Notes: generated by a model not told the origin, from the sequence alone. A stretch of DNA of 32,974 nucleotides from a bacterium (GCA_030426865.1 JAUHXN010000001.1:1-32974); one strand, 5' to 3'. Shown: positions 1,807 to 21,504, numbered from the stretch's first letter. Numbers and translations are program-made.

Positions 1807-3120
1807 ATGAATCCAGAACACTCAAAACAAGAAGTTTTAATAGCATTAGAAAAATTAATCAAAAGCAGTAATGGGCGGATTGCACCGCAGGATGCTGCTG
1901 CTGCAACGGGCTATTCTACACAAGATGTAGAAGACTCACTAGCACGGCTAATGGAACTCTACAAATGCAAAGTAGAAGTAGATGAGGAAAATGCTAGACC
2001 TATTTTCAACTTCGATATACCATTCAAGAAGCGTGGTGAAAAAACATTCCAAGAAAAGCTAGCAGTAGCTCTCAACTTTTTCTGGGAAGTATTTAAGAAA
2101 ATCTACAAAGTAGCAATAGGTGTTATACTGATACTCTATACGCTCATATTCGTAGTTATAATAATGGTTGCCGCTAGTCAAGGTGGAGACAAAGATAGAC
2201 GGAACAATAATTCAAGTAGAATGATTTCCAATATTTTCTCAGCTATTTTCCATGGGATGCGATTTGCAGCTATTAATAAGCACTATAGCACTGCGGTTGA
2301 TAGAGACAATATGCACTATCGATATTATGAGAAACCCGAACACAAAGGTAAGAAGTTCATACAGTCCGTTTACGACTTCGTTTTTGGTCCCGAAAGACCC
2401 GAATTCGACCCACTAAACGATACGAAAGAAGTAGCAACATACATAAGAGATCATTCCGATAAAATAACTTCTGCAGATATTATAAATCTATCTGGGGTTG
2501 ACTACGACGAAGCAGATAGCCGATTAGCCGAGTATGCATCGAAGTTTCGTGGCAGTATAGATATAACAGAAAACGGTACAGCTGTTGCAGATTTCCGTGA
2601 TTTGAGTGTAATCAGCTCAAAGCTAGAAGGCGGCAAGGTGGAATATTACATAGACGAAGTAGAACCACCTTATGAAATGACTGGCAATACATCTGGTCGT
2701 AATTTTGGGATAGGGTTTATGAATCTATTCAACCTACTAATGTCAATTGCTGTGATACAAGGAGCCGCTCAAATAGAATCTGGACTAGTTACATTCGCAC
2801 TAGGTTGGTTTCCGTTAATCTTCTCAATTCTCTTCTTCCTAATACCAATAGGTAGAGCCCTAACACATAAGAGCAAAGAAGCCCAAAGAAGCAAGAACGT
2901 AGTCCGCAAAATATTAGTCGGACAGATAATAGCTGCCAATGGAGGCCCTCTGACTATGGAACAGGTCATCTCAAGAATTAACTTACAGAATCACTCTATC
3001 AAAGAAGTAGAGGAAGTGCTCAGCAAAGTAGTCCTTGACCTTCGAGGCGAGATAGTAATTGCAGAAAACGGCACTCCTATGTATAATTTCGATAGGTTGA
3101 AAAGAGAGTTGGTGGCGTAG
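1807..3120 (+). CDS. Membrane protein with three copies of a ~50-aa winged-helix-like module; function unknown
   Basis: The 437-aa ORF has hydrophobic segments near residues 100-125 and 300-345. Three internally similar modules each end in G-x-I-x-[IV]-x-E-N-G-x...F-[DR]: residues ~20-70, ~215-265 and ~385-435. Confidence 0.7.
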   Translation: MNPEHSKQEVLIALEKLIKSSNGRIAPQDAAAATGYSTQDVEDSLARLMELYKCKVEVDEENARPIFNFDIPFKKRGEKTFQEKLAVALNFFWEVFKKIYKVAIGVILILYTLIFVVIIMVAASQGGDKDRRNNNSSRMISNIFSAIFHGMRFAAINKHYSTAVDRDNMHYRYYEKPEHKGKKFIQSVYDFVFGPERPEFDPLNDTKEVATYIRDHSDKITSADIINLSGVDYDEADSRLAEYASKFRGSIDITENGTAVADFRDLSVISSKLEGGKVEYYIDEVEPPYEMTGNTSGRNFGIGFMNLFNLLMSIAVIQGAAQIESGLVTFALGWFPLIFSILFFLIPIGRALTHKSKEAQRSKNVVRKILVGQIIAANGGPLTMEQVISRINLQNHSIKEVEEVLSKVVLDLRGEIVIAENGTPMYNFDRLKRELVA

Positions 3121-3124
3121 GGAT
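3041..3124 (+). repeat. Direct repeat copy 1 (true 3' end of the 437-aa gene, its TAG stop and 4 nt beyond)
   Basis: The 84 bp match 5106-5189 with mismatches only at 3048, 3051 and 3061. Positions 3062-3124 are identical to 5127-5189. Confidence 0.95.
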
Positions 3125-3171
3125 TTTTGTTATATTGTGGATTAATAAATAATAAAGTCAACTAAAATATT

Positions 3172-3284
3172 AAACATTCGTATAACGAAATAAGAAATTT
3201 CAATTAACTTATTAAATCCTAAGGCGATAGAAATATCATTTTAATTGATATACGAAAGTAATAATGGTAGGATATACGAATGTT
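3172..3284 (+). promoter_or_regulatory. Repeat-rich leader upstream of island ORF1; possible operator or promoter region
   Basis: A 12-bp inverted repeat aacattcgtata (3173-3184) / tatacgaatgtt (3273-3284). The direct repeat gatatacgaa occurs at 3247-3256 and 3271-3280, with a related tataacgaaa at 3181-3190. Confidence 0.3.
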
Positions 3285-3315
3285 CGTTTATCCAGATAGT
3301 TAGCCACTATATAAA

Positions 3316-4188
3316 ATGACACTGCTCGATAGCATAAAAGACTTGTTCAAGGAGAAGCCAAAAGGACTTCAAGGAGAGCGTTTGAATACAATCCGTCAAA
3401 TTGAAAAGCTCTACAAATTCTTGATTGATGATTTTGGCTATCAGCTTGAACTTACAACACGGACCGACAAATATCCAGGCGGACCAAAATTCTATTTCAT
3501 AAAGTACACCAATAAGGACATTGACCGACAGGTCGAAATTGTGCTACACCGAAATAGCACCGTTGTATATCGACATTTAAAAAAACTAAATGACGGAATA
3601 GAACCAAGCTATAAAGACTACGAAAATTGTATCCCGTTTTATCAGCTTGACTTTTACAATGGAATTGACGACCACAACAGGTCTAATCCTTACAATCCGC
3701 CTGACTATGAATTGGCAATTTTAAAATATGGAAAGGAAACACTTCTAAATAATGTGTCAATCATTAATGGCGAAAAGTGGATTGACTATGAAAAGCTGAA
3801 TGAAATGTATTTATCTCAAAAAGGATATGAAGCACCTGACGGAGAAAATTCGCTTTTCAGCGAGCTTATTGAAAAATTCCAATTCTTAACTACGGAGTTT
3901 GACTTCAGTATAATTCACAATTACAATGACTTGCCACCATTTGAACAGGATTTAGGCGGCAGTTTGGTTTATTCCAATGACAACACAGTAGTTGGATTAT
4001 CAGTCGACTTGAGAGACCAGTATTTGTCGGTTTATATATTAGACAAGAAGGACTACGACCTTGACTCATTTTGGCAGAAAGGAGAAGGTATCTTTAATGG
4101 TTCAACGGGAGACAATGACCTTAAACAAGCAGTGAATCGAACGAAAAATAAAATAAATACAGTGGCTAACAATGGCTATAAAAAATAG
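3316..4188 (+). CDS. Hypothetical protein (island ORF1) with an internal two-module duplication
   Basis: A 290-aa ORF with an ATG start. The N-half (IEKLYKFLIDDFGYQLEL...) and C-half (IEKFQFLTTEFDFSIIH...) share a helix followed by beta-strand-like segments. I recognise no catalytic motif. Confidence 0.65.
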   Translation: MTLLDSIKDLFKEKPKGLQGERLNTIRQIEKLYKFLIDDFGYQLELTTRTDKYPGGPKFYFIKYTNKDIDRQVEIVLHRNSTVVYRHLKKLNDGIEPSYKDYENCIPFYQLDFYNGIDDHNRSNPYNPPDYELAILKYGKETLLNNVSIINGEKWIDYEKLNEMYLSQKGYEAPDGENSLFSELIEKFQFLTTEFDFSIIHNYNDLPPFEQDLGGSLVYSNDNTVVGLSVDLRDQYLSVYILDKKDYDLDSFWQKGEGIFNGSTGDNDLKQAVNRTKNKINTVANNGYKK

Positions 4189-4335
4189 GGCATACAAGAT
4201 TGGATAACTCAGCAATGGGTCATACTTTTTGGTGAAAAAATTGATGAAATTAATCACAGGTGGCTTTTAGGTCCCTTTGGGTGCACAAATGGCATTGGTC
4301 AAAAATTTATCAATCAATTAGTAGAAAAAGAACAT

Positions 4336-5034
4336 TTGGTTATTGATAATCAAAAAATAAACAAGGGATTAATTGAATCAATCGACCAACTAAATCTGTC
4401 TGCAAAAGAATTAAACGCATTATCTCAAGATGTTATTGACTTTTATCTAAATACATCTAATTATGACCTTCGATTAAAAGCAAAATGGAATCCATTTTTT
4501 AAAGTGTTCGGCATTTTGATAACAAAAATTTTCAGTAAAAGAATTGAGCAACTAAATGTTCCTATTCAAAACGTAGAGGATTCATCGGGATTAACGAATG
4601 AAATAATAAAACTACTAGACTCTAAAACAAATGAAGTTAGAAGAACAATATGGCTTCGAGCATTTAAATCAACAGGTCAAGTAGTTTACTCAGGTGTTTA
4701 TGAAACTTGTATTATACCATCAGGCACGACATGTATCAAAGCAATTTTTCCTTTACCAAATGGAAATGCTACAGTCATTCTAAAGCCAAAAATTGGAAAA
4801 AATGGAGAACTGATTTTAATTTCCGAGGGACAAAAAATTGGAGATAGCGGGTTTTACTTTTTGCTAAAAGACTCAAAAGGTCAATTATGGACTAAGTTTA
4901 TAAAATCATTTAAAGACAAGCTAGTCGTTAGAAGTGAAAACGATAGAATTACTGCCACTCAAACTTTAACTTTATGGAATTTAAGAGTTCTACAGTTTGA
5001 ATATGATATACAAAAATTCCGCAATGTAAAATGA
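4336..5034 (+). CDS. Hypothetical protein (island ORF2); the reading frame stays open upstream to 4189
   Basis: The first canonical start is the TTG at 4336. The 49 codons between the TAG at 4186-4188 and 4336 contain no stop and are in the same frame as ORF1. The C-terminal two thirds look beta-rich. Confidence 0.55.
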   Translation: MVIDNQKINKGLIESIDQLNLSAKELNALSQDVIDFYLNTSNYDLRLKAKWNPFFKVFGILITKIFSKRIEQLNVPIQNVEDSSGLTNEIIKLLDSKTNEVRRTIWLRAFKSTGQVVYSGVYETCIIPSGTTCIKAIFPLPNGNATVILKPKIGKNGELILISEGQKIGDSGFYFLLKDSKGQLWTKFIKSFKDKLVVRSENDRITATQTLTLWNLRVLQFEYDIQKFRNVK

Positions 5035-5105
5035 ATAATAAAAAGTCAAACAGCATGATGGTAAGGATCTCTTATTAGTTAAATAAGTTACAAATATTCA
5101 AGCTC

Positions 5106-5189
5106 TTCGAGGTGAAATAGTAATTACAGAAAACGGCACTCCTATGTATAATTTCGATAGGTTGAAAAGAGAGTTGGTGGCGTAGGGAT
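5106..5189 (+). repeat. Direct repeat copy 2 (orphan 27-codon tail plus stop of the 437-aa gene)
   Basis: It translates as LRGEIVITENGTPMYNFDRLKRELVA-stop. Relative to copy 1 it has two synonymous changes and one Ala-to-Thr change. No upstream gene body is attached. Confidence 0.95.
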
Positions 5190-5194
5190 AAAAT

Positions 5195-6115
5195 TTACTT
5201 ACATAGATTCTTTTGATTTTCTGCGGCTTCCTTATGACCAAGAGCCTCAGCTTTTTCTAAGTCTTTACAAACCATATTTAATATTCCAATATTATACCAT
5301 GTAAATGCTCTTTGAAAATATGCATCAGCAAAATCCGGGTATAACTCAATTAATTTATCAAATGTATCTTTTGATTTTCCTAAATCATCTTCTTCTCTAT
5401 ATAATATCCCATTATATAAGTAAGAATATTTATTTTCAGGCCAGATTTCAATACTTTTTTCTAGGTCACTATGACCTTGTTTAGAATTTTTAAATTGAGT
5501 TGCATAAAGTAGACCTCTGTTAAAATATGCATCATAGTAATTACTATCAAGTTTGATTGCTTCATTATAATTAAGTAGAGCTTTATCTTTCTCAGGTGAT
5601 GAGAAAGAAGCATAACAATATCCGAGTTGAAAGTAAGAATATTTGTCATTTGGCTCAAGCTTTAAAGTTAATTCAAAAAACTCAATTGCCTTATTTATAT
5701 CACCAAGTCCGAAATAACATTTTCCAATATTGAAGGAACCGTGTGAATTTTGTAAATCTGTTAATTCAAATGCTTGAATAAAATCATCAAGTGCTTTTCT
5801 ATGTTGACCTAATGATAAGTAACAATGACCCCTTTGGTATAAAGCAGTTGAGTCATCTGGTACTATATCCAAAGTTTTGTTACAATACGAAATAGAACTT
5901 TCTACATCACCTATATAGAAATGTAGTAAACTAAGTTTATTATAAATATGATGATTATTCTCATCTAGTTGAAGTGCTTTGTTATATAAATCAATCGACT
6001 CCTTAAAGTTCTTTTCTTCTCTTGCTTCAGCAGCAGATGATACTAACTCTTCGAAAGTCTGACCTAATGTTGCCGATGTTATAATGAGAAATAATGCTAA
6101 TAGTATTTTTGTCAT
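5195..6115 (-). CDS. Secreted tetratricopeptide (TPR) repeat protein
   Basis: An N-terminal signal peptide is followed by about seven 34-aa repeats with the TPR pattern (A/Y/F at conserved positions, e.g. AIEFFELTLKLEPNDKYSYFQLGYCY). I set the start at the ATG at 6115; the ORF-track start at 6127 is a TTG. Confidence 0.8.
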   Translation of the reverse strand: MTKILLALFLIITSATLGQTFEELVSSAAEAREEKNFKESIDLYNKALQLDENNHHIYNKLSLLHFYIGDVESSISYCNKTLDIVPDDSTALYQRGHCYLSLGQHRKALDDFIQAFELTDLQNSHGSFNIGKCYFGLGDINKAIEFFELTLKLEPNDKYSYFQLGYCYASFSSPEKDKALLNYNEAIKLDSNYYDAYFNRGLLYATQFKNSKQGHSDLEKSIEIWPENKYSYLYNGILYREEDDLGKSKDTFDKLIELYPDFADAYFQRAFTWYNIGILNMVCKDLEKAEALGHKEAAENQKNLCK

Positions 6116-6325
6116 AATAGTTATCAAATTTTTTTTACTTTTTAATTACCAACAAATATAATAAATCTCTTCTAATAACTAGAATCTGGGTATGATAATA
6201 GATAAATTAAAAGCTCACCAGAGTTATTTCCATTATTACAATAAAAACGGTATTTATTCTTATCTTAGTAATCTTAAATGTATAACATTTAGATAAGTTT
6301 ATAAATAATAAATCAAGCGTAAAAA

Positions 6326-8365
6326 ATGAAATTAAAATCTTATGTGCAAGGACAATGGCAAGAAGGCGAGGGCTCAGGTCAAGTATTAAAAAATGCGGTA
6401 ACTGGTGAAGTAGTAGCTGAAGTAAGCTCTAAAGGTGTCGATTACAAAGGCGCAGTAGAATACGCCCGAAATGTAGGCGGTAAAAACTTACGCCAGTACA
6501 CAACTCACGATCGTGCTTATATGCTACGTGATTTGGCAAAGCATTTATTGAGCAAAAAAGATTTGTTCTACCAGCTATCGTATGCTACTGGTGCAACCAA
6601 AGTTGATTCTTGGATTGACATAGAAGGTGGTATTGGTACGCTATTTACATATAGTGGTAAGGCAAGGCGTGAGATGCCAAACGAAAAATTTTACATAGAT
6701 GGTAAACTAGAACATCTTTCAAGAGAAGGCACATTCCAAGGTCATCATATATGTGTACCTAAGGAAGGTGTTGCTGTTCATATCAACGCATTTAATTTTC
6801 CTTGTTGGGGTATGCTTGAGAAGATTGCTCCATCGCTAGTTGCTGGTATGCCGTGTATAGTAAAACCGGCTTCTTTGACTTCGTATCTTACAGAGCTAAT
6901 GGTAAGAGAGATAATAGCATCTGGAATATTACCCGAAGGCTCGTTGCAGTTAATATCTGGCTCTGCTGGGGATATGCTTGACCACCTGGATATGCAAGAT
7001 GTAGTCACTTTCACGGGTTCACATGCTACAGGAGTGAAGCTAAAATCTCATCCGAATATTATCAATAATTCGATTCCGTTTAATATGGAAGCTGACTCGC
7101 TCAACTTCTCTATGCTTGGTATAGACGCTAAGCCCGGCACTGCAGAATTCGATTTATTTGTAAAAGAAGTATCAAGAGAAATGACTGTAAAATCTGGGCA
7201 GAAATGTACTGCTATTCGTCGTACATTAGTCCCTGAGCAATATGCTGATGATGTTATCAAAGCATTGAGCGATAGACTATCAAAAACGACTATGGGTGAC
7301 CCACTGCAAGAAGGCGTGAGAATGGGACCTTTGGCTGGTAGGGATCAAGTAAATGATGTAAGTGCTGCTCTGAAAAATCTTCTTGCAGACGCATCAATTG
7401 CTTACGGAGATTTGGATAATTTTGATCTAATTGGCGGTAGTAAAACGGAGGGTGCGTTCTTCCCTGCTATGTTGCTTTATTGCGATGATCCATTCAACAA
7501 GACAGCACCGCACAACATAGAGGCGTTCGGCCCTATAAGTACTGTTATGCCTTACAAGACAGTAGATGAAGCTATAGAACTAGCTAAGCTAGGTCGTGGT
7601 TCATTAGTCGGCTCTGTATTCACTGCTGACAATGAATTCGCTAAGTCAATTGCTTATGGAACTGCCGCGTACCATGGTCGTCTAATGTTCTTGAACGAAA
7701 AGTCAGCAAAAGAATCTACTGGTCACGGCTCACCTATGCCTCAGTTAGTGCACGGTGGACCGGGTAGAGCAGGTGGTGGTGAGGAACTTGGCGGTGTTCG
7801 CTCTATATTGCACTATATGCAACGTACAGCAATACAAGGTCATCCTGACACACTAACAGCTATAACTGGCGAATATCAAAAAGGATCAACTAGAACAGAA
7901 GAATTAATTCATCCGTTCAAAAAGAATTTCGAAGATTTACAAATCGGTGATAGCTTAACTACTCATAGAAGAACAGTAACAGAGACCGATATAGTAAACT
8001 TCGCTAATATTTCGGGTGACAATTTCTATGCTCATACTGATATTACTTCACTAGGTGAGGGAACGATATTCACTGGTAGAGTGGCTCACGGTTACTTTGT
8101 AATGTCGGCGGCGGCTGGTCTGTTCGTTGACCCTAAGAAAGGCCCAGTATTGGCTAACTACGGGTTGGACGAGCTTCGTTTTATTCAACCTGTGTATGTG
8201 AACGATACTATATACGTGAAGCTAACGGCAAAATCGAAACAAGACAAACAAGCGAAAGAAGATGAAATACCATCGGGTATAGTAAAGTGGGATGTAGAAG
8301 TTCTTAATCAGAATGATGAGCAAGTTGCTCAAGCCACTATCCTAACTTTGGTAGCTAAGAAGTAG
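6326..8365 (+). CDS. paaZ: Bifunctional aldehyde dehydrogenase / MaoC-type hydratase, PaaZ-like (oxepin-CoA hydrolase / 3-oxo-5,6-dehydrosuberyl-CoA semialdehyde dehydrogenase family)
   Basis: The 679 aa are collinear with E. coli PaaZ (681 aa) as I recall it. Shared blocks include GVAVHINAFNFPCWGMLEK, GQKCTAIRR, STGHGSPMPQLVHGGPGRAGGGEELGG and the C-terminal hot-dog block RVAHGYFVMSAAAGLFV. Confidence 0.88.
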   Translation: MKLKSYVQGQWQEGEGSGQVLKNAVTGEVVAEVSSKGVDYKGAVEYARNVGGKNLRQYTTHDRAYMLRDLAKHLLSKKDLFYQLSYATGATKVDSWIDIEGGIGTLFTYSGKARREMPNEKFYIDGKLEHLSREGTFQGHHICVPKEGVAVHINAFNFPCWGMLEKIAPSLVAGMPCIVKPASLTSYLTELMVREIIASGILPEGSLQLISGSAGDMLDHLDMQDVVTFTGSHATGVKLKSHPNIINNSIPFNMEADSLNFSMLGIDAKPGTAEFDLFVKEVSREMTVKSGQKCTAIRRTLVPEQYADDVIKALSDRLSKTTMGDPLQEGVRMGPLAGRDQVNDVSAALKNLLADASIAYGDLDNFDLIGGSKTEGAFFPAMLLYCDDPFNKTAPHNIEAFGPISTVMPYKTVDEAIELAKLGRGSLVGSVFTADNEFAKSIAYGTAAYHGRLMFLNEKSAKESTGHGSPMPQLVHGGPGRAGGGEELGGVRSILHYMQRTAIQGHPDTLTAITGEYQKGSTRTEELIHPFKKNFEDLQIGDSLTTHRRTVTETDIVNFANISGDNFYAHTDITSLGEGTIFTGRVAHGYFVMSAAAGLFVDPKKGPVLANYGLDELRFIQPVYVNDTIYVKLTAKSKQDKQAKEDEIPSGIVKWDVEVLNQNDEQVAQATILTLVAKK

Positions 8366-8387: not shown

Positions 8388-8426
8388 AATCCCTCAATTG
8401 CGAAAGTGGTTGAGGGATTTTTTTAT
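8388..8426 (+). terminator. Rho-independent terminator of the paaZ-like gene
   Basis: A 10-bp perfect stem aatccctcaa / ttgagggatt with a 12-nt loop, followed by a run of T. Confidence 0.8.
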
Positions 8427-8510
8427 TCTCAGTATTTCTAAGTGGGAAGAAGGATCCAGGAAAAGAATTCTTTAGAGATAGTTTAAACATTTAAAATAAC
8501 AAGTTTATAT

Positions 8511-9254
8511 TTAATTCCATAATCTTAGAGTAATAGGATTTAGAATCTCAAGTTCCCCTTTAACTTTTTCTATTGGTATTATAGTCGGATTCCTAAAAGT
8601 CACTTCTTTATTTAGTTTACTATTTCTAAATGCTATTATCTCTGCAGATATAATTTCTCCGAAACTTGTTACAATTCTAACTTTTGTTTCTGGACAGTAG
8701 TATCCATTTCTTCCCTTATATTGCAAGGCATCTTTCTTAACCTCTTCTTTTAACTCGTTAGAAATTAGTTCTACTTCGAAAGTTCTACCAGGTGATTTGG
8801 CAAACAAAACATTATACGAATTATCATTATCGAAATAATACCAACAATTTATCTCTTCTGTCATTGGCTTATATATATAGGAACCAATTCCAAAAATTAT
8901 TAATAACGGAATTAAAAATAATTTTTTGTAATGTCTATTAATAAATCTATACTCGTTTTTAACTGAGAACATTAGTAAAGAACTTAATAATAAAGGAATG
9001 AATGCTATTATCATTCTTTCGTAGTTATCAGGGTCATAAATCATTATAAATCCAATTGTTTCAGCACTAAATATAATCCATAAACAGGCTGAAACAAAGA
9101 AAGCCAAATCAGATTTAACGTGATTACGAACTCTCATGAAAAGTGCTAATATTGTTATTATTGTTAAAAATGGAAATTTAAGAGGAATTGAATATGTAAT
9201 CATCAATCCCCACAATACCAATAATATTGAAAATATATATTTTAGATTTTTCAA
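8511..9254 (-). CDS. Integral membrane protein, function unknown
   Basis: A 247-aa ORF with about five hydrophobic helices in the N-terminal 130 aa and a soluble C-terminal domain. The annotated start is a TTG directly abutting the upstream stop (TAGTTG), so the true start is uncertain; the next Met is residue 18. Confidence 0.6.
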   Translation of the reverse strand: MKNLKYIFSILLVLWGLMITYSIPLKFPFLTIITILALFMRVRNHVKSDLAFFVSACLWIIFSAETIGFIMIYDPDNYERMIIAFIPLLLSSLLMFSVKNEYRFINRHYKKLFLIPLLIIFGIGSYIYKPMTEEINCWYYFDNDNSYNVLFAKSPGRTFEVELISNELKEEVKKDALQYKGRNGYYCPETKVRIVTSFGEIISAEIIAFRNSKLNKEVTFRNPTIIPIEKVKGELEILNPITLRLWN

Positions 9255-10724
9255 CTATTCCTTTATAATCTTCTTAATCTTAGTACCATTGCTGTTCTTG
9301 ATATGAAAATAGTAAATGCCAGCTGCTAAATCAGAGATATCTATATTTGTATTGTTGTCTGTTAATTCAATGCTATAAACTTGTTTTCCTGTTGTATCAA
9401 CTATACTAATCTCACTTGGTAAAATACGTTCTGTGAATTGAATATTTACTTCACCTTTGGTAGGGTTCGGATAAACTGAAATGCTTTCTTCTTCGGCTCT
9501 CTCATAAACCGAGGTTTCGGGGTTGTATCTGAAGACTTTCACATAACCACTTCCACTTACGTTATGCTGAACACCAGAGATAACAATCATATCTCCATCG
9601 GAATTAAAACTAGTAGAAGTTCCAAACCAATCGTTGAAAGCTTCACCAAGTAACACTTGCCCTTTTTGAACCCATTCAGTTCCAACTAAATTATATATTC
9701 TAGTTAAACCAGAATTACTATGTAACGAATCGTTATGAGGATCACCTATTGCCATAACAGAACAATCAGAATTAAAACTTACATTAAGCGGAAGATGATG
9801 AGGTTCAATACTTTCAAGTAAACTATTGCCTGTGAGAATCCAATTATTATCTATATATTTATAAGTTATAATTCTATCTGTTTTTGTTTTATCTTCTTCA
9901 TTAATTACTGAATAACAAGTTATGGAATTACCTTCTGAATATAATTTGATAGACTCTAATTGAATATTTATATCATCTTCACCTATAATAGTTTCACCCA
10001 TTTTAGTCCATTCTCCATTAACAAATCTATATACATCAATTTTTCCAATTCTAGGGTAATCGCTTAAATTTTCATATTTGCCAATAGCAATGGAATTGCC
10101 ATCAGATGTGAAATCTACATAGTACCCGAAACCAGTATTATAACCATCCCCTATTATTTCTTTACCTATTTGTTCCCAATTCTCATTCACATATTTATAT
10201 ACTCTAATATTTCCCATTACATCCTTATTTCCAATACCACCTACAACTAGTGATAGACCATCTGAACTAAGTGATACAAAAAATCCTATTTGCTCAAATT
10301 CAGAATCGCCATAAATTTTTTGACCCATCTGCACCCACTTATTAGATTCTAATCTATAAACTGTTACAAGACCTGCATTTTCTTTCATTTCACTATTATA
10401 AGGTGCACCTGTTACCAGAAATTTCCCATTTGAACTAAATTCAAATTTTAAAATAGAATTACCATTAGTAGTATCACCTACTATACTTTGTCCAACTTGT
10501 TCCCATTGATTGTTTTTGAAAGTAAATACTCTAACTTGTCCAGATGCATTATTATGAAAATCAGCGGAAGCTGCAATTGTTAATCCGTCCTTGCTCATAC
10601 TCACGCGTGATCCAAATGTATCACCATCATTTTCTCCAATTTGCTTATCCCCCAACTGTTCCCATTGGGCATTTACAAGAGTTGGCGTTAGTACGATAAG
10701 TATTATAATTAGTATTTTTTTCAT
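9255..10724 (-). CDS. Secreted seven-repeat (beta-propeller-like) protein with a T9SS C-terminal sorting domain
   Basis: Signal peptide, then seven ~55-aa repeats each starting with a [NE]xW.Q.G..I.G motif (NQWEQVGQSIVGD, NKWVQMGQKIYGD, ENWEQIGKEIIGD, ...). The C-terminus VYPNPTKGEVNIQF...GIYYFHIKNSNGTKIKKIIKE is typical of T9SS type A CTDs. Confidence 0.8.
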   Translation of the reverse strand: MKKILIIILIVLTPTLVNAQWEQLGDKQIGENDGDTFGSRVSMSKDGLTIAASADFHNNASGQVRVFTFKNNQWEQVGQSIVGDTTNGNSILKFEFSSNGKFLVTGAPYNSEMKENAGLVTVYRLESNKWVQMGQKIYGDSEFEQIGFFVSLSSDGLSLVVGGIGNKDVMGNIRVYKYVNENWEQIGKEIIGDGYNTGFGYYVDFTSDGNSIAIGKYENLSDYPRIGKIDVYRFVNGEWTKMGETIIGEDDINIQLESIKLYSEGNSITCYSVINEEDKTKTDRIITYKYIDNNWILTGNSLLESIEPHHLPLNVSFNSDCSVMAIGDPHNDSLHSNSGLTRIYNLVGTEWVQKGQVLLGEAFNDWFGTSTSFNSDGDMIVISGVQHNVSGSGYVKVFRYNPETSVYERAEEESISVYPNPTKGEVNIQFTERILPSEISIVDTTGKQVYSIELTDNNTNIDISDLAAGIYYFHIKNSNGTKIKKIIKE

Positions 10725-14284: not shown

Positions 14285-14334
14285 ATAATTAATAAAAATA
14301 TTGCATTTATTACAGCTTTTAAAATAATTTAAGA

Positions 14335-16992
14335 TTACTCTACAAACACTTTGAATAATTTGTTTTTATATTTGTTGCTTATGCTTAGATAATACAAACC
14401 ATTAGCAATATTATTGATATCAAATGTATTGAAATATACCTCAGTATTTTTCTCTATTACAATTCTCTTAACTACTCTACCCATATAATCTATTAATTCT
14501 AAATCGTAAATACCTCGGAAATCTCCACTACTTTCAAAAGTAATGTTCTTCGCAGATATAGTTATATTTGCGTCACTTTCTATAATAAAATCAATTTGTC
14601 TATATTCTTGAACACAGATTTCATTTGTAATCAAAGACCCATTCTCAATTTCAAAGTTATAATTTGTTGTGGTATCTAAAACTATTATTGCTGTAGAATC
14701 AATATTAGCTAACAAAACGGTACCAATCAAACTTCCAATTTTAACTCTACTATTTGTTACTAATTGATTTTCTTTATATCTGAATCTAACATTGGTATTC
14801 TCGCTATCTTCCCATTTATTCATCAGATTTATACCTTCAACTCTTTCTATATAATACTTACTTTTAAGAAGGGAAATAGTTGCTTCAAAACTTAAACTGT
14901 CTATATTTTCTAAACAAGAAGTTGTTAAATAGATAGGGATTTCAAAATTTCTTTCTCCTATATTTGCTTTCAAATGCGGAATTTCCAATCTGAATGACGA
15001 ACTTTTGATATTGATTTTTATCGGTATCTCAATCACTTTGTAGCATTCTGAATAAATAAAGATTTCTAACGTATCATTTATTATTCCAACATATGAATTA
15101 TCGAAGATTAAGTTTATATTTTTATTGAAACTTCCATTAATATAAGCACCAATTAGAGCTGGTTCATTCGTAACAGTGATTTGGTTTCCTTTCCGAAATT
15201 TCACACTATCGACTCTTAGTTCAAAATCTGATTTAATTGGAAAAATAATAGATTCTATTTGTTGTATTCCGCGGCATACTGTTATTTCAGAAGTTGTATC
15301 TGCATTAAATTCAATTTTTGGAATCTCTATTCTATATTCAGTAATGCCACTACAGCCGCTGTTTGAAGATACTTCTACATTCAATAATCCTAGTTGTGTT
15401 ACAATAACAGTGTCTTCATTACCCAATTGAGTTTTGGTATTTGTTATTGGGTCAGTTATAAACCAATTATAATTATCGTATTTTTCTTTAGTTGTGAACT
15501 TTATCTCTTCAAAAGGATTGCTACATAGGTTCAATTCTTGTGGGCTTACTAATACAATTTCTGGGGTATAGCCATCATATACTTCAATCTCAAATGTGTC
15601 ATTGAAAATTTGGTTACAACTTCTGAAATTATAGAAGTAAGATCCAGCATCATCTTTGCTGATTATGTCGAACAGCAAATCTTTTGAATATACTCTTTCG
15701 CCATTAGACTTTACCCAAGTATGATCACCGCAAGGGTCATCTATTCCTTCGACAATGGCTTGGCTATTTACACAAAATTGTAGCTTATCGAGTAATCGGT
15801 CAAACACTGTATAAGGTTGTGGCTCAGCAAGAAAGTTCGTAGGTATATTCTGAAAATGTGGTGCATTAATCCTATTATCTGTCAAAGCCAACCCCAAATG
15901 TTGGTAACCCACATAGGGGGCTTCAGAATTTGGACAATTAATTACTCCGAGAAAAGTACTGTCCTTCCTACCCGTGTAATTGTATAGATATTTTATATAT
16001 AATCGATTATTGGGTGCCAATTGGAATTCCCAAAACAAACAATCAGCACAAGAGGATTCTGAACTCCATATTATTTTCATTGAGTTAAGAAAAAAATCTT
16101 TATCACCCCAATTTTTTAAATCGAACTGATGAATTATATGTTTTTGATACCCACTTTGTGTATAAAACTTCGTGCCATCTTGAGAAAAATCAAACCTACC
16201 TCGAATGCTGTAATTCAACTCTTTATCAAGCTCTAAATCAAATAATTTTGTTACCTCGCCATTTGAGTTGTCGAAGTCAAAGAATTTGAACTTACATGCG
16301 TGATGGTTCATTATCAACTTATCTCCTTGGGGTGAGAACTTAACAAGAAAGCCAGCAAATAAACTTTGTTCATTTAAAGTGTCTAAATTGTCAAAAGTTT
16401 TTTTAATAATTCGTTCGTCTGCGAAAAGTTGAGTTATATGAATGAAGTTTGGGTTTGAAATTAAAGTAGCTAAATAATAACTTTTTTTGTCTTGACTAAT
16501 AGTAGCGGTGAGTAAATATCTCGACATATCTTTCTCTATCAGTGTCTCTGTTTTAATAGTTGTACTACCAGAACTATTATCTATTTTTATATAATTAAGT
16601 GTACCAGTTTTCTCATAGTCTATTGCAGAGACATAAACATAATAATAAATATCATCTGAATAGAATGGTAATACTATAGATTCAATACCAGTTCTTGCCT
16701 CCTGATTATCAAAATTATGCTCGAATAATACTACATCATTACTATCACGAATTACAATTTTCTTATCGTAGTTATCAAAACTAAAAAGTAAATCGCCATT
16801 TTCATCAGTTAAAACATCAGTATTCTGATATCCAATTTCTTTTTTTGAATCGTCTGTTTTGATTTCATATTGGCATTCTTCTTTTCCAAATTCAATCTGT
16901 GTTTCCCTATCGAATTGCCATATTGAAAACGGTTTGGATGAAAATAGATTAATTGAATTTAAAAAGAGTAAAGTAATAATTAGAGATTTCAT
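14335..16992 (-). CDS. Large secreted protein with a T9SS C-terminal sorting domain, function unknown
   Basis: An 885-aa ORF with an N-terminal signal peptide and a Cys-containing middle region. The C-terminal ~80 aa end in GLYYLSISNKYKNKLFKVFVE, which is CTD-like. Confidence 0.7.
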   Translation of the reverse strand: MKSLIITLLFLNSINLFSSKPFSIWQFDRETQIEFGKEECQYEIKTDDSKKEIGYQNTDVLTDENGDLLFSFDNYDKKIVIRDSNDVVLFEHNFDNQEARTGIESIVLPFYSDDIYYYVYVSAIDYEKTGTLNYIKIDNSSGSTTIKTETLIEKDMSRYLLTATISQDKKSYYLATLISNPNFIHITQLFADERIIKKTFDNLDTLNEQSLFAGFLVKFSPQGDKLIMNHHACKFKFFDFDNSNGEVTKLFDLELDKELNYSIRGRFDFSQDGTKFYTQSGYQKHIIHQFDLKNWGDKDFFLNSMKIIWSSESSCADCLFWEFQLAPNNRLYIKYLYNYTGRKDSTFLGVINCPNSEAPYVGYQHLGLALTDNRINAPHFQNIPTNFLAEPQPYTVFDRLLDKLQFCVNSQAIVEGIDDPCGDHTWVKSNGERVYSKDLLFDIISKDDAGSYFYNFRSCNQIFNDTFEIEVYDGYTPEIVLVSPQELNLCSNPFEEIKFTTKEKYDNYNWFITDPITNTKTQLGNEDTVIVTQLGLLNVEVSSNSGCSGITEYRIEIPKIEFNADTTSEITVCRGIQQIESIIFPIKSDFELRVDSVKFRKGNQITVTNEPALIGAYINGSFNKNINLIFDNSYVGIINDTLEIFIYSECYKVIEIPIKINIKSSSFRLEIPHLKANIGERNFEIPIYLTTSCLENIDSLSFEATISLLKSKYYIERVEGINLMNKWEDSENTNVRFRYKENQLVTNSRVKIGSLIGTVLLANIDSTAIIVLDTTTNYNFEIENGSLITNEICVQEYRQIDFIIESDANITISAKNITFESSGDFRGIYDLELIDYMGRVVKRIVIEKNTEVYFNTFDINNIANGLYYLSISNKYKNKLFKVFVE

Positions 16993-17093
16993 AACTTTTC
17001 CTGCTAACTTTTAATATTGTATTTTCATATTAAAAGATAAGGATGAAAATAGTTACATAAAAGGTGGAAATATTAGTTTAAGTCCTATGGCAC

Positions 17094-17131
17094 ATTGAAA
17101 CAAAAATGGGTTAGTAATATACTAACCCATT
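17094..17131 (-). terminator. Rho-independent terminator of the 1451-aa gene
   Basis: A perfect 12-bp stem aatgggttagta / tactaacccatt (17105-17131) with a 3-nt loop, followed on the minus strand by tttttgtttc. Confidence 0.85.
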
Positions 17132-17148
17132 AGATATTGTTTCTCAAT

Positions 17149-20100
17149 TTATTCTTTCACAAGCTTAATAGTCTTGATACCACTTTCAGAAACCAATCTA
17201 CAATAGTAAGTTCCACTAGGGTACTTAGACCCATCTAGATTAACGCTGAATGTACCTACACCATAGTCTTTAGTATTGATAAAATCGAATCTTCTACCTG
17301 TGATATCCACTACTTCTATAGAGAATGATTCTGGCTTATCGAGGTTAAACTCGAAGTTCATCACGTTCTTGAATGGATTTGGTCCATATTCAACGTTGTT
17401 GATTAGAAATTTGCTGTCAACATTGTTAGTACCTTGAGGTACTATTATTCCAGCTACCCAATCACTAAAATGGTCTGTATTGCCACATAAGACCGTATTG
17501 TCGTTCTTATTATGAACAGAAGGGTACTGTGGCTTCCATTCGTCGTTTTCGTCCTCTCTCCAGCACATTCCGATTAAATTAGGTAATTCTGGAATTAATT
17601 TCTCATATTGTGCTCTCAATTGGAAAATCAAATCAACACTAAAATCCTTGTTAATTCCACTTGATTTCAATGTCCACATCCTCGAACCAGAAAGTTCAAT
17701 TATTCTCTTATCAGTGAATGTGTGTTTTTTCTGATCAATTGACATTTTAGATTTGTATGTAAAGCCCAGCTCAGCACCGTCAACCCCTTGTACTAGTACA
17801 TCAGTCCCTTTGAATTTGATTTCTTGTTCAATATCGTTAATAGTTCCATTAGCAACTACAGTAATTGTTGGACATTGTAGAGTATCGATTTCTTTTTGCT
17901 GTTCTATTACCCAATCATAAGCTTCACCAAAATCAACATGATCGTCATTATTTTCATCAGCATCTGATTCACCATAGCATTTCAAGAAATGGTGAGAAAA
18001 TAATCCATAACCTTTTAGTTCATCTTCTGAAGGTCCCGCATACTCAGTATTTGCTAATTTCTTTTCATTGGCAGAAGTAACTACTGTGATATCAGAATCT
18101 TCGAATTGATCATCTTTTATGGCTTGTTTTGCCAAACCAGAGAAACAAGCATCTATAACAACGCAATTGTCATCTGCACCTATATCGCTTAGTTTTTTCA
18201 TCAGATCATCGTAGCTGAGCCAATCGGAAGTACTATCTCCTGTACACATTTTTCCATCATTGCTTCCGTGACCTGTGTAATAGAAATAGACCTTTTTGTA
18301 TTTACCTACCATACCTTCTAATATCGCGCATATACTATCCTTACCTATTCCTTTCTCTTGTCTTATATTATCGTCACCTAGTTGAGCGCCTAATTTTTCA
18401 CTAGTTAAGTTTTCCGCAAAGTCCTTTATATCACATTCAAAAGCTTCTTGTTGTCTAGCTTTTTTCTTATCTAAACCAGAAACCAAGATAGCACAAACGG
18501 AATCTTTACTTTCCCCTTCCACATTCTCTGTAATAGTACTTGGTACTTCGGGTCCAGAAGGATTATCTTTAGAACCATGTAACTGAACATCATCAGGAAA
18601 GCGTTTATCGCCAGTTTTACTTTCTAATACTGGGTACCAATTTGCATCTGTGGTGTTAAACTCTTCAGTCACAGGATTGTAAGTAAACAAAATAGTAGGA
18701 TGTTCGAATCTACTCAGAGGCTGCAAGTCAATCCAACCTACATACATTGGGTCAGTTATCGGTATTAAAAGCTCTGGTTGGTGCAAAGGATACATAAACC
18801 AATCTGCTGGAATAGGGATTGGGTCATAATATACTCTTACGTTCAATGGGTCAGAATCATAATATGATTGTGTTAGCGATTTTAATATAGCTTCAATATC
18901 TAATGAGGTAGTATCACGAGTATCATCGACAAAACCTTGTGGGTTTTGAGTTGTATTTATACTATCGCTACCATAAGTTGGGTTTTGATTTCTTACCCAA
19001 TCAAATGCTTCTTGGAAAGTGATAATCGAGTCCTTATCCTTATTGGCTAATGAATCTGTACTACATAACACAAAATTACGAGTGAAGTAACCTTGGCACC
19101 ATCTATTAGTTGTGTCAGTTGTTGATCTGTACCACACGTTTTTAGATGTTTTAGTAGAATCAGAAGCGGTGAATACACTTACTTTTCGTTTGCCTCTTGT
19201 AGTGTCATTTTTGGCAGCAGATACTGCTAATCCAGAATAACAAGCATCGAGTACCACAGTTATATCAGAGGCCTTCGTGCAGTAAAGTTCCATAAATAAT
19301 TCTTGATATGATAGCCAATGTTGCGAAGAGTCATTTGTACATATTTTTCCAGATTTAGAACCATGTCCAGCATAGAAGAAATATATTTTGCTATAATTCT
19401 CTTTCAATTTTTTTATTGCAGCTATTATTTCTGCTTTGGTTGCTTTATCTAGAACTTCTACATTTCCATCACCTAATTCTTCACCAACATTATTTTTCTG
19501 TAAGAACCATTTTATCCAATCTCTATCATAGTCAAAAGCACCTTGCATAGTAGAGTCGTTTCCAGTTACTATTATAGCACATACAGAATCTTGAGTTGGA
19601 TTAGGAACTGGTCCCGTTATATCCAATGGCGGTAATGGTGGTGGCAAAAATATAGGAGGTTCACCGATTAATATTGGTGGTGGAATAAGTGCAAAAGGAT
19701 CTGGATGCCACGTATTACCATCAATTACTGGAAACCAATTAACATCTTCTATTATCGGTTGATTAATATCATCACCAAAGAAGAGATATTGTACCGGTTT
19801 GGAATATTTACTTTGTGGATCCCAATCTAACATTATGAACCACGAATCGTCTACAAGAGTTGTACTATACTCATCGGTATCGAATGTTACTATATCCGTA
19901 CCTGCAGGTAGTAAAGTAGGGTAAGCATATCCTAATATCTTAGTGAGATCTAACTCACCATAATTTTCATTCAAATAGTCAGTTAACCAATTTTTAATTG
20001 ACTCTAATGTAATTCGCGAATCAGCAGTAAAAGATTGAGGATTTTGTCTTTTATTGAGTGAATCAGAACCAAACGTTGGATTTTGTTTCCTTGCCCAATC

Positions 20101-21504
20101 GAAAGCTTCTTTGAATGAAATAACGGTATCCTTGTCTGTGTTTGCCAAAGTGTCTTTACTACATTGGGTTATAGCTCTGGTAAAGAAACTCTCACACCAT
20201 TTTACATTAGTATCGGCAGTTAGATGATACCAAACTACTCTTGATGTTTTGTTGCTATCGGATGAAGTAAAAACTTCAACTTTCTTTCCTTTCTTATCCT
20301 TATTGTCTTCGGCTGCTTTTAGAGCAGTACCAGCATAACAAGCATCTACCACAACTACTATTTCTGTTGCGTCTGTTCCAAATAGATCCTTGAACAGTTC
20401 ATCATAAGTCATCCAATTTTTAGACGAGTCATTGGTACACATTCGCCCATCTTTGGCTCCGTGACCTGTGTAATAGAAGTATATTTTTTTATAGTTCTTC
20501 TTAAGCTCCTCTATGGCAGCTTTTATCTCAGCTTTTGTACCACCATTCAGACACTTTACATTATCATCAGAAAGTTCTTGCCCGTTACCATTCTTTTGAA
20601 GTATCCAGAGCAAATTCTTCTTGTCGTAGTCTAATGCAGATTGCAATACAGAATCTTTTCCAGTGACTATTATAGCACAAACCGAATCTGTCTTTTCTGT
20701 TGGAACTGGTACCTCGTAATCTATCTCTATAGTTTGAGAGAGAAATAGTGGTGGATCACCGAAAATAATTCCATCAGGATTAAATGGGTCAGGAACCCAT
20801 AACCAATCATCTACGTAAGGATACCAATTAACATCGTGAAAAATATGATCTTGACCTTCACTTAGTATCATATAAGTTACTGGCTTCTGGTATTTGGAAA
20901 CAATATCCCAATCAAGTAATACTAACCAAGAATCATATTCTAATGTAGTTGTAAATTCTTCGGTATCAAATGTTGTTAATACAGTCCCAGCTGGGTAAAA
21001 ATCCATTCCCATATAAGCATGTGTACTTTGAAGCTCCATTTGAGAAAAGTTCTCTGTCAAATACTGATCTACTTGACCAATTACAAAGTCCCTGTCGAAT
21101 GGAGGTAAAAGGAAAAACTGATGTTCTCCATAATTGTTAGTTAAGTTTTCATCGAATTCTTGTTGAGTATCGAACGCTAATACATACTCAGTATTAGGGT
21201 CCAAATTTAGATAGTCTAACGGGCCAAAATTAACTTGTGTTGTTTCACCCGCTTCAAGTGAATCTAAAGCTTCCTGCCTTTGGTCCATTACTTGTTGGTC
21301 ACTTGTTCTAATCAATGTCATCTGAAATTGAATCTGATAAACGCTGAAATTTGTATTCAGATTTTCATATTCAACTACTATATCTTCTTGATTTCCGTGA
21401 TGCAATTCATCAGGAAAGAAAGCAAATTTGAAACTCAGATCTCCAGCAGTAGAAATATTGAGAGAAAATAGCATAATTGCTAGAAGAGTAAATACCGTTC
21501 TCAT
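17149..21504 (-). CDS. Giant T9SS cargo protein with three tandem legumain/caspase-like (clan CD) cysteine peptidase-like modules
   Basis: Signal peptide, then three ~365-aa units each with Y[FY]Y[TA]GHG...(41 aa)...DAC[YF][AS]G: His348/Cys389, His714/Cys755 and His1079/Cys1120. The C-terminal CTD ends in GTYYCRLVSESGIKTIKLVKE. Confidence 0.75.
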   Translation of the reverse strand: MRTVFTLLAIMLFSLNISTAGDLSFKFAFFPDELHHGNQEDIVVEYENLNTNFSVYQIQFQMTLIRTSDQQVMDQRQEALDSLEAGETTQVNFGPLDYLNLDPNTEYVLAFDTQQEFDENLTNNYGEHQFFLLPPFDRDFVIGQVDQYLTENFSQMELQSTHAYMGMDFYPAGTVLTTFDTEEFTTTLEYDSWLVLLDWDIVSKYQKPVTYMILSEGQDHIFHDVNWYPYVDDWLWVPDPFNPDGIIFGDPPLFLSQTIEIDYEVPVPTEKTDSVCAIIVTGKDSVLQSALDYDKKNLLWILQKNGNGQELSDDNVKCLNGGTKAEIKAAIEELKKNYKKIYFYYTGHGAKDGRMCTNDSSKNWMTYDELFKDLFGTDATEIVVVVDACYAGTALKAAEDNKDKKGKKVEVFTSSDSNKTSRVVWYHLTADTNVKWCESFFTRAITQCSKDTLANTDKDTVISFKEAFDWARKQNPTFGSDSLNKRQNPQSFTADSRITLESIKNWLTDYLNENYGELDLTKILGYAYPTLLPAGTDIVTFDTDEYSTTLVDDSWFIMLDWDPQSKYSKPVQYLFFGDDINQPIIEDVNWFPVIDGNTWHPDPFALIPPPILIGEPPIFLPPPLPPLDITGPVPNPTQDSVCAIIVTGNDSTMQGAFDYDRDWIKWFLQKNNVGEELGDGNVEVLDKATKAEIIAAIKKLKENYSKIYFFYAGHGSKSGKICTNDSSQHWLSYQELFMELYCTKASDITVVLDACYSGLAVSAAKNDTTRGKRKVSVFTASDSTKTSKNVWYRSTTDTTNRWCQGYFTRNFVLCSTDSLANKDKDSIITFQEAFDWVRNQNPTYGSDSINTTQNPQGFVDDTRDTTSLDIEAILKSLTQSYYDSDPLNVRVYYDPIPIPADWFMYPLHQPELLIPITDPMYVGWIDLQPLSRFEHPTILFTYNPVTEEFNTTDANWYPVLESKTGDKRFPDDVQLHGSKDNPSGPEVPSTITENVEGESKDSVCAILVSGLDKKKARQQEAFECDIKDFAENLTSEKLGAQLGDDNIRQEKGIGKDSICAILEGMVGKYKKVYFYYTGHGSNDGKMCTGDSTSDWLSYDDLMKKLSDIGADDNCVVIDACFSGLAKQAIKDDQFEDSDITVVTSANEKKLANTEYAGPSEDELKGYGLFSHHFLKCYGESDADENNDDHVDFGEAYDWVIEQQKEIDTLQCPTITVVANGTINDIEQEIKFKGTDVLVQGVDGAELGFTYKSKMSIDQKKHTFTDKRIIELSGSRMWTLKSSGINKDFSVDLIFQLRAQYEKLIPELPNLIGMCWREDENDEWKPQYPSVHNKNDNTVLCGNTDHFSDWVAGIIVPQGTNNVDSKFLINNVEYGPNPFKNVMNFEFNLDKPESFSIEVVDITGRRFDFINTKDYGVGTFSVNLDGSKYPSGTYYCRLVSESGIKTIKLVKE
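17866..18921 (-). repeat. Internal repeat unit 3 (residues ~862-1213), more diverged
   Basis: It retains DSVCAILVSG, VYFYYTGHG (His codon 18268-18270) and VVIDACFSG (Cys codon 18145-18147). The N-terminal pre-domain is divergent. Confidence 0.7.
18922..20019 (-). repeat. Internal repeat unit 2 (residues ~496-861)
   Basis: Same architecture as unit 1. The His codon is at 19363-19365 and the Cys codon at 19240-19242. Confidence 0.8.
20020..21117 (-). repeat. Internal repeat unit 1 of the 1451-aa protein (residues ~130-495)
   Basis: It aligns by eye with unit 2 along its whole length (PAGT..TFDT.E..TTL..DSW...LDWD..SKY.KPV.Y...DVNW.P...DSVCAIIVTG...GHG...DACY.G...NP[TS][FY]GSDS). The His codon is at 20461-20463 and the Cys codon at 20338-20340. 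Confidence 0.8.

Follow-up and report, generated by a model that had tools for sequence, protein, structure and literature searches.

The stretch of bacterial DNA analysed here, JAUHXN010000001.1:1-32974 of assembly GCA_030426865.1 (32,974 nt; hereafter the window), carries a complex insert in the spacer between a gene for a 437-aa membrane protein (M437) and paaZ. The insert is bracketed by two copies of the 3' end of M437 and contains an AT-rich leader, an intact open reading frame (ORF1), a second reading frame that lacks its start (ORF2) and a short spacer; a convergent TPR-repeat gene follows (Table 1). The original prediction took this arrangement for a single 2.07-kb insertion with att-like geometry and two novel ORFs. 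Comparison with related loci resolves it instead into the products of two nested events.

Table 1 Features of the M437-paaZ interval in the window (L004, L008 and V1 are related loci described in the text)
Feature	Coordinates	Strand	Description
M437	1807-3120	+	ORF of the 437-aa membrane protein; conserved left flank of the hot spot
Direct repeat, copy 1	3040-3124	+	Genic: last 27 codons of M437, TAG and 4 nt; functional copy
AT-rich leader	3125-3301	+	3125-3148 common to all strains; 3149-3301 shared only with L004 (97%)
ORF1 segment	3302-4191	+	About 0.9 kb; ORF1 at 3316-4188, 290 aa
ORF2 remnant	4189-5034	+	281 codons of a conserved protein of about 290 aa; start and about nine N-terminal codons gone
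Spacer between ORF2 and orphan tail	5035-5104	+	70 nt; common to L008 and V1, with the same junction to the orphan
Direct repeat, copy 2	5105-5189	+	Orphan tail of M437; apparently partly homogenised with copy 1
TPR-repeat gene	5195-6127	-	Pfam TPR; occupies, as cargo, another variable slot (about 5199-6234)
paaZ	6326-8365	+	Bifunctional aldehyde dehydrogenase/hydratase (NCBIfam TIGR02278, 984 bits); conserved right flank of the hot spot

A repeat search of the window aligned the two copies of the M437 end as an 85-nt direct repeat (96% identity). The mismatches lie at 3048/5113, 3051/5116 and 3061/5126, and the final 63 bp, including the TAG stop codon and the GGAT that follows it, match perfectly. 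The repeat had been described as 84 bp long; it is real and has the same three mismatches, but extends over 85 bp. Two of the differences are synonymous (GGC/GGT and GAG/GAA), and the third exchanges Ala for Thr (GCA/ACA). The runner-up direct repeats in the first 9 kb do not exceed 35 nt or 90% identity, so a repeat of this length and likeness is not due to chance. Within M437, the stretch 2546-2579 is 74% like the tail repeat because the protein carries three internal units of about 45 aa, which lie near residues 24-68, 208-254 and 390-430 and end '…G.I.I.ENGT..Y.F'. The ORF calls confirm that copy 1 is the true end of the 437-aa ORF and that copy 2 is an orphan, whose TAG sits 9 nt from the stop codon of the convergent TPR gene. 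No inverted repeats were found at the ends of the insert in the repeat search, and the tail sequence is absent from the viral contigs of IMG/VR that were scanned.

Orthologs of M437 with 78-99% identity occur in 10 loci from metagenome-assembled genomes (MAGs) of the Kapaibacteria/Ignavibacteriota type, which are variously labelled Ignavibacteriota, Chlorobiota, Bacteroidota or Ca. Kapaibacterium. A DAO oxidoreductase gene is always adjacent, upstream. Despite this clade-wide conservation, Pfam and NCBIfam scans assign M437 to no family, and PADLOC and PHROGs returned nothing significant for it. On the other side of the spacer, paaZ lies downstream in L001, L003, L008, L018 and L019. The spacer itself is hypervariable among about ten related MAGs: the gene order after M437 differs in nearly every genome, and the related loci include both sites without the insert and sites with other cargo at the same place, which bears out the earlier suggestion of an insertion hot spot. 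M437 is followed by DUF559, a 440-aa gene and paaZ in L001, by the 177-nt leader of the window and then SDR and AraC-type genes over more than 6.7 kb in L004, and by unrelated genes in L002, L003 and L005-L007. A single tail with unrelated genes downstream is present in L001-L007 and in L009; L019, whose stretch ends 28 nt into the tail, is not counted as an empty site.

A second tail copy is confined to the three strains that carry ORF2: the window, the GenBank MAG contig JBFHKR010000122 (L008) and the JGI contig Ga0209475_10000130 (L020 plus L018, together V1). Both L008 and V1 show the tail duplication with the identical orphan junction. In both, M437 is followed by a 237-aa gene, which tblastn did not find in the window, and then by an intact ORF2 and the orphan tail; DUF559 and paaZ come next in L008, the same TPR gene as in the window and paaZ in V1. 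The orphan of L008 and its downstream sequence are collinear with the end of M437 and the sequence downstream of it in L003 (75% over 229 nt) and L002, in which the gene is undisrupted. The orphan is therefore the displaced original end of M437 and marks, as had been proposed, where the gene would end without the insert.

The slot downstream of the orphan varies as well. The TPR protein has 99.7% amino acid identity in V1, a DUF559 gene stands in its place in L008 and L019, and the homology of the window with L008 picks up again at 6235, past the slot. The DUF559 gene (131 aa, Vsr/restriction-endonuclease-like) is located at L008:2980-3537, and also at L001:9367-9925 and L019:8571-9026. In L008 it is flanked by its own 51-nt direct repeats (96%) with the hairpin CCCTCTTAAATCTTTAAGAGGG, a motif that accompanies DUF559 in L001 and L019. 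We considered a dispersed repeat of the repetitive extragenic palindrome (REP) type for this hairpin and rejected it, as the motif is tied to DUF559 and absent from the window.

The window and V1 are about 97% identical across most of the window. However, positions 3149-4170 of the window have no counterpart in V1, which has at this place 808 nt containing the 237-aa gene. This exchange makes the 2.07-kb insert a composite, not one unit. On its left side, the identity of the leader with L004 stops exactly after …GATAGTT at 3301, where the window continues with AGCC and L004 with GTGC. The leader contains a promoter-like match at 3245-3273. It folds into local hairpins only (z about -2.5), with no end-to-end pairing, and is not attC-like; the folding led us to reject it as an attC-like site.

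The segment that follows the leader spans ORF1 from 14 nt before its ATG to 3 nt past its stop codon. A short JGI contig, L023, has the 3' end of ORF1 at 97% identity through …AATGGCTATAAAAAATAGGGC and then continues into an unrelated 136-aa gene. The end TAGGGC is native in this contig, which diverges afterwards; because the same end of ORF1 occurs there in another context, ORF1 ends natively at TAG 4186-4188. Homology of the window with L008 and V1 resumes at GCATACAAGATTGG, and the homology of ORF2 begins at GCATACAAG, which leaves an overlap of two nucleotides (GC, 4190-4191) with the native end of ORF1. The two reading frames are thus joined 3 nt past the ORF1 stop and at about codon 10 of ORF2.

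Full-length homologs of ORF2 begin MGIAxKKQxxQDW, whereas the window copy begins G-I-QDW after the TAG and has lost the ATG. The first canonical start is TTG at 4336, and the translation of the preceding 49 codons is conserved (…QDWITQQWVILFG…WLLGPFG…); the ATG at 4172 lies in another frame. Intact copies of ORF2 are found in L008 (1853-2773) and V1. The window copy is 75-98% identical to its homologs, the 98% being to the intact copies. With its start and its partner gene gone, we infer that the window ORF2 is dead or crippled. The ratio of nonsynonymous to synonymous differences (pN/pS) in ORF2 is 0.36-0.67 (7 differences), compared with 0.02-0.12 in core genes, which is a weak hint of relaxed constraint. 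At 4708, the window copy retains the family-invariant Cys174 ('…YETC…'), a position that is Ser in the intact L008 copy (YETSI) and at which the nucleotide of V1 also differs from the window.

Neither ORF of the insert had seemed assignable to a family. This stands insofar as neither gave a significant match in Pfam, PADLOC, PHROGs or fold searches, but ORF2 belongs to a large, unannotated family of Bacteroidota. A profile search returned at least 1,607 proteins of about 70-88% identity, many of them at 75-88%, with hosts among cultured marine Bacteroidota that include Zobellia, Maribacter, Aquimarina, Tenacibaculum, Aequorivita, Algoriphagus and Balneola. For ORF2, scans of Pfam, NCBIfam, PADLOC and PHROGs returned nothing above noise, and a PDB profile search returned nothing; more generally, PADLOC matched none of the cargo proteins and no PHROGs match of theirs was better than E 0.005. 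The structural model of ORF2 (predicted local distance difference test score, pLDDT, 76.7) has a helical N-terminal part and a beta-rich domain, and its comparison with the PDB gave only weak lipocalin-like hints, at E 0.02 or worse.

In all contexts examined (L008, V1, L011-L017, Zobellia galactanivorans FP476056 and A. sublithincola), ORF2 is preceded by a gene of 233-237 aa. This gene, lost from the window, is the partner of ORF2, and the idea that the two ORFs of the insert form a pair, which also overlooked the 5' truncation of ORF2, has to be given up. In the MAG and metagenome loci, the calls of the two genes overlap by about 50-60 nt; a gap of 14-15 nt separates the genes in Zobellia and in Aequorivita, where the neighbours of the pair include trmD and rplS. 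Module coordinates are L027:6285-7870 (Z. galactanivorans FP476056), L028:6284-7870 and L008:1188-2773, and neither gene has a Pfam family. Residues 59-226 of the partner match the CrtA model NCBIfam NF045923 with E values of 1e-8 to 1e-10 and 34-41 bits, against an equivalog cutoff of 300 bits. The partner is a distant relative of CrtA, and we claim no more than superfamily membership. CrtA (spheroidene monooxygenase) is a haem-dependent alpha/beta-barrel oxygenase (PMC13488962), and the flavobacterial CrtA-OH hydroxylates carotenoids at position 2 (PMC11855829). In size the partner is similar to these enzymes, and its C-terminal half contains conserved His and Arg residues. However, it is far more distant from CrtA than CrtA-OH is, and no carotenoid cluster surrounds it in Zobellia and Aequorivita.

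The partner/ORF2 module looks metabolic rather than defensive, and the two genes are a candidate for a new lipid- or carotenoid-modifying pair. The earlier suggestion of defence or toxin-immunity cargo finds no support in ORF2, given its conserved family, its ordinary chromosomal contexts, its enzyme-like partner and the negative PADLOC result.

ORF1 is the sole intact cargo gene of the insert and a rare accessory gene. Its relatives number 17 in an exhaustive HMMER search against 1.84 billion representatives; most are 260-290 aa long, and the best has 48% identity. The family has no match in scans of Pfam, NCBIfam, PADLOC and PHROGs or in a PDB sequence profile search. The structural model of ORF1 (pLDDT 89.8; predicted template modelling score, pTM, 0.83) has no significant fold match in the PDB (E 0.055 or worse), and its matches in BFVD are marginal, have low TM scores and concern uncharacterised viral proteins only. 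ORF1 consists of two related alpha+beta units around a helical middle (hhalign 89%, E 2.6e-6), each of which opens with an 'FxFL..(D/E)(F/Y)G(F/Y)' motif. Because near-invariant positions in the family number only four or five and are mostly hydrophobic, the alignment suggests a role in binding or as a scaffold rather than catalysis; ORF1 is probably a binding protein or immunity-like.

The homolog of ORF1 in L021 lies directly downstream of a DUF4062-NACHT nucleoside triphosphatase (NTPase) of the STAND (signal transduction ATPases with numerous domains) class. The homolog in L025 follows, at a distance of 3 nt, a large protein whose C-terminus looks PD-(D/E)xK-like in the translation but has no Pfam match. 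A third homolog, P0011 (44% identity) in L022 (CP156677.1), is the first ORF after an Xer/IntI-like recombinase. The region L022:4849-8400 (CP156677.1 about 1375255-1378800) is an integron-like array that contains this homolog and at least two further cassettes. Its three attC-like sites are about 135-150 nt long and 750-800 nt apart; their strands fold with paired ends, and they share the motif R'' ACCTAAC … R' GTTAGAT/GTTAGGT (ACCTAAC…GCGTTAGAT/GGT). The tyrosine recombinase is oriented like the first cassette and falls short of both NCBIfam cutoffs. These contexts are accessory or mobile and, in a small sample with negative PADLOC results, suggestive of a defence-island or cassette gene. 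A defence or toxin-immunity function for ORF1 is possible.

The islet is much less diverged between strains than its flanks. Between the window and V1, the proportion of synonymous differences (pS) is 0.087 in the DAO gene, 0.091 in M437 and 0.168 in paaZ, but 0.017 in ORF2 and 0 in the TPR gene. Only 16 mismatches fall in 4190-6370 (0.7%), compared with a mismatch density of about 7% over the opening 600 nt of paaZ (6371-6970) and about 5% over the closing 400 nt of M437 (2715-3114). Exchange of the islet between the strains is thus more recent than their divergence. The GC content of ORF2 and the TPR gene, 0.28-0.33 against 0.38-0.43 in core genes, would support a foreign origin.

The two copies of the repeat also bear traces of exchange. 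The orphans of V1 and L008 have two orphan-specific variants (GGAGGCG and GGGGT), in place of which the window carries the genic allele; the perfect 63-bp identity in the window arose because the genic allele overwrote these variants. The three 5' variants of the repeat are sorted differently between the genic and orphan copies in each strain. This pattern suggests that the copies recombine with each other by gene conversion. The genic and orphan copies are 4.7% apart in V1 and 9.4% apart in L008, values comparable to the inter-strain divergence in that part of M437, which fits an origin from donor and recipient alleles.

No machinery that could account for the insert is encoded nearby. Family scans of the ORFs of 100 aa or more in the 33-kb window found no recombinase, integrase or transposase domain, and the RNA scans found no tRNA or Rfam family in the insert or the window; the absence of an integrase, a transposase and a tRNA from the insert had been correctly noted. 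Among the ORFs listed downstream of M437 in eight related loci, only part of which were family-scanned, none was noticed to be integrase-like. The window has no attC site 3' of ORF1 and no integron integrase. Signs of a transposon, an insertion sequence or a miniature inverted-repeat transposable element are likewise missing, in that there is neither a transposase domain nor an inverted repeat at the insert ends, and a duplication of 85 bp far exceeds the usual target-site duplications. The homology of the partner/ORF2 operon to L011 and L015 is restricted to the coding regions (L008 1180-2762). No repeats flank the operon in these two loci, and no conserved element ends accompany it across its other contexts.

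We consider the feature to be a composite, recombinase-free islet at a hot spot, with a probability of about 85%. The islet was most likely acquired horizontally and in two steps, in the M437-paaZ spacer of a bacterium of the Kapaibacteria/Ignavibacteriota type. In the first step, common to the window, L008 and V1, the operon of the 237-aa CrtA-like gene and ORF2 would have entered attached to the 3' end of a donor M437. Its left end would have been resolved by homologous recombination inside M437, which stays intact, and its right end, 70 nt past ORF2, by an illegitimate join to the recipient M437 27 codons before the stop, creating the 85-bp orphan. In the second step, confined to the lineage of the window, a 1.0-kb segment made up of about 150 nt of L004-type leader and ORF1 would have replaced 808 nt, taking away the 237-aa gene and the first nine or so codons of ORF2 and leaving ORF2 without a start. 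The left end of this replacement would have been homologous (M437 and leader), and the right end would have formed at the 2-nt GC microhomology 3 nt past the ORF1 stop. Afterwards, the tract from ORF2 through the tail to the TPR gene would have moved between strains by homologous recombination, and the repeat copies would have exchanged sequence by gene conversion. One of the two mechanisms offered originally, the exchange of a cassette at a hot spot through homologous recombination, comes close to the comparative data.

For the first step we lean, on the geometry of the locus, towards homology-facilitated illegitimate recombination (HFIR), as described in PMC3240628. In HFIR one boundary lies in homology between donor and recipient, as the left boundaries do here in M437 and the post-stop leader, and the other shows no homology or a microhomology of 1-8 nt, as seen at the ORF1/ORF2 join with its GC at 4190-4191. 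The second step bears the same hallmarks, with one end in shared sequence and the other formed at a microhomology with loss of resident DNA. HFIR has been invoked for displacements in which orphans remain downstream of conserved genes (PMC5361080). The scars in arrays of orphan immunity genes and 3' fragments at Vibrio type VI secretion system (T6SS)/Rhs loci (PMC3240628; PMC5361080) resemble our locus in that the incoming DNA is tied to a conserved gene at one end and attached at the other with no homology or at a 2-nt microhomology, the resident sequence is displaced downstream as an orphan, the cargo varies between strains, and homologous recombination spreads it. In the Vibrio loci, however, it is the 5' part that stays constant, and variable 3' tips and immunity genes make up the orphans, whereas here the orphan is the conserved 3' tail of a gene for a non-toxin membrane protein, the cargo is not an effector-immunity pair, and the mechanism is deduced.

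Several observations weigh against this two-step account. The right junction of the first step at 5104/5105 (…AAGCT followed by CTTCGAGG) shows no homology and no clear microhomology, and the donor arrangement was not found. The 51-nt repeats around DUF559 at the same locus hint at a recurrent repeat-generating process, which is no specific prediction of HFIR. The leader/ORF1 junction comes directly after GTT, as in integron-type crossovers, and the central 40 bp of the repeat are invariant in all copies, as an att core would be. It is possible that a recombinase encoded outside the 33-kb window made a site-specific event.

Integrative elements that target the 3' ends of genes carry a replacement copy of that end, so that attL and attR bracket the element, and their integrase-less, cis-mobilisable remnants are known as CIMEs. 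The 85-bp repeats could be attL and attR of a small element of this kind, CIME-like or a decayed island, with a recombinase acting in trans and a carried 3' end that restores the gene. Its geometry would be exactly as observed, namely direct repeats derived from the target 3' end around foreign DNA, with the gene intact. The invariance of the central 40 bp or so extends to all six copies, with variants on either side, and the islet is near-identical across strains whose flanks have diverged. We nevertheless regard this explanation as unlikely. Beyond the lack of a recombinase in the window or, as far as the related loci were scanned, at the site in relatives, neither conserved ends nor flanking repeats accompany the operon in L011, L015, Zobellia or Aequorivita, and the cargo between the repeats was changed by an internal illegitimate replacement, not by exchange of an element. 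In addition, the tail does not occur in the IMG/VR contigs, and the 4.7-9.4% between the copies is ordinary inter-strain divergence, as expected of donor and recipient alleles. The miniature integrative element mobilised in trans that was originally envisaged thus finds no positive evidence.

A different role for a recombinase in trans, which we think quite improbable, would be the placing of ORF1 as an integron-type cassette at a secondary GTT site in the leader, followed by a deletion that took the attC site, the 237-aa gene and the start of ORF2. As in the cassettes of sedentary chromosomal integrons and of clusters of attC sites lacking integron-integrases (CALIN), the ORF1 segment is gene-sized; a family member, P0011, occupies an integron-like array with three attC-like sites behind an Xer/IntI-like recombinase; and the window and L004 part exactly at …GATAGTT, with AGCC following in the window. 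This junction agrees with the core GTTRRRY at two of the three R positions, but it is one junction only and may be fortuitous; by our own estimate, one GTT among about six junctions has a chance of about 10%. The 136 nt after ORF1 in L023 fold unlike an attC site (z +0.76), as does the leader, which lacks end-to-end folding, and the window has neither attC 3' of ORF1 nor an integron integrase, while the L022 recombinase itself stays below the NCBIfam cutoffs. An extra deletion would also be needed.

It is a long shot that the last 85 bp or so of M437 serve a trans-acting recombinase as a reusable capture site and that ORF1 is a novel defence or anti-defence gene. If true, the capture site would be an att-based, integron-like one in Kapaibacteria, shuffling the CrtA-like/ORF2 operon, ORF1 and perhaps DUF559.

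ORF1 and ORF2 lie in one frame, a point missed in the original prediction, parted only by TAG 4186-4188, and the frame is open over 4189-5034. This could point to a functional unit of the two, either a defence or toxin-immunity pair or a 571-aa fusion made by read-through of the TAG or by near-cognate reinitiation. Apart from its missing start, ORF2 has an intact coding sequence with 98% identity to functional copies, and ORF1 homologs stand beside the STAND NTPase in L021 and the PD-(D/E)xK-like protein in L025. Such a unit is nonetheless very improbable: ORF1 ends natively at the same TAG in L023, M437 also ends in TAG, and in the contexts examined the two never co-occur elsewhere, ORF2 being always with the CrtA-like gene and ORF1 homologs never beside ORF2. 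The absence of PADLOC, PHROGs and Pfam matches and the raised pN/pS of ORF2 point the same way, and the in-frame placing is most simply a 1-in-3 coincidence. Two related candidates were rejected. A programmed -1 frameshift at A_AAA_AAT (4180-4186) from the ATG at 4172 would meet TAG 4186-4188 at once in the -1 frame, and L023 assigns this sequence to ORF1. Reassignment of TAG is incompatible with the native ends of M437 and ORF1 at TAG and with intact core genes. Finally, the sequence evidently stems from an assembly of the metagenome type, and public data contain several strains with other cargo at this site, but a chimera of co-occurring strains can practically be discounted, because two further independent assemblies from different projects show the same duplication and orphan junction, the 2-nt ORF1/ORF2 overlap is too short for a k-mer chimera, and the copies differ by substitutions.

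Other parts of the window also differ from V1. Positions 8425-10532, absent from V1, comprise a gene for a 247-aa membrane protein (8511-9254, - strand) and most of that for a 489-aa FG-GAP/Kelch protein with a type IX secretion system (T9SS) Por_Secre_tail (9255-10724, - strand). Positions 14285-17149, equally absent from V1, contain an 885-aa ORF with no Pfam family (14335-16992, - strand) and form another strain-specific insertion. No direct repeats flank either region. Positions 17149-21504 encode a 1451-aa protein that has a caspase domain (Peptidase_C14) and a T9SS sorting tail; a blastn comparison with V1 revealed internal paralogous repeats of about 64% identity at 18931-20689.

The feature is most likely an ordinary flexible genomic islet with recombination scars, of a known kind, rather than an undescribed mobile element or defence system. 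Its main value is negative, in that two rounds of combined illegitimate and homologous recombination account better for the recombinase-free att-like geometry, and one of the two 'novel ORFs' is a decapitated remnant. By-products of the analysis are a conserved, unannotated module of a CrtA-like protein, which would be a relative of haem oxygenases, and a beta-rich protein of about 290 aa, as well as the rare ORF1 family. Beyond these, the locus offers a clean natural case in uncultured Kapaibacteria/Ignavibacteriota of a gene-tail duplication that arose and was then, as the sorting of its variants suggests, homogenised by gene conversion.

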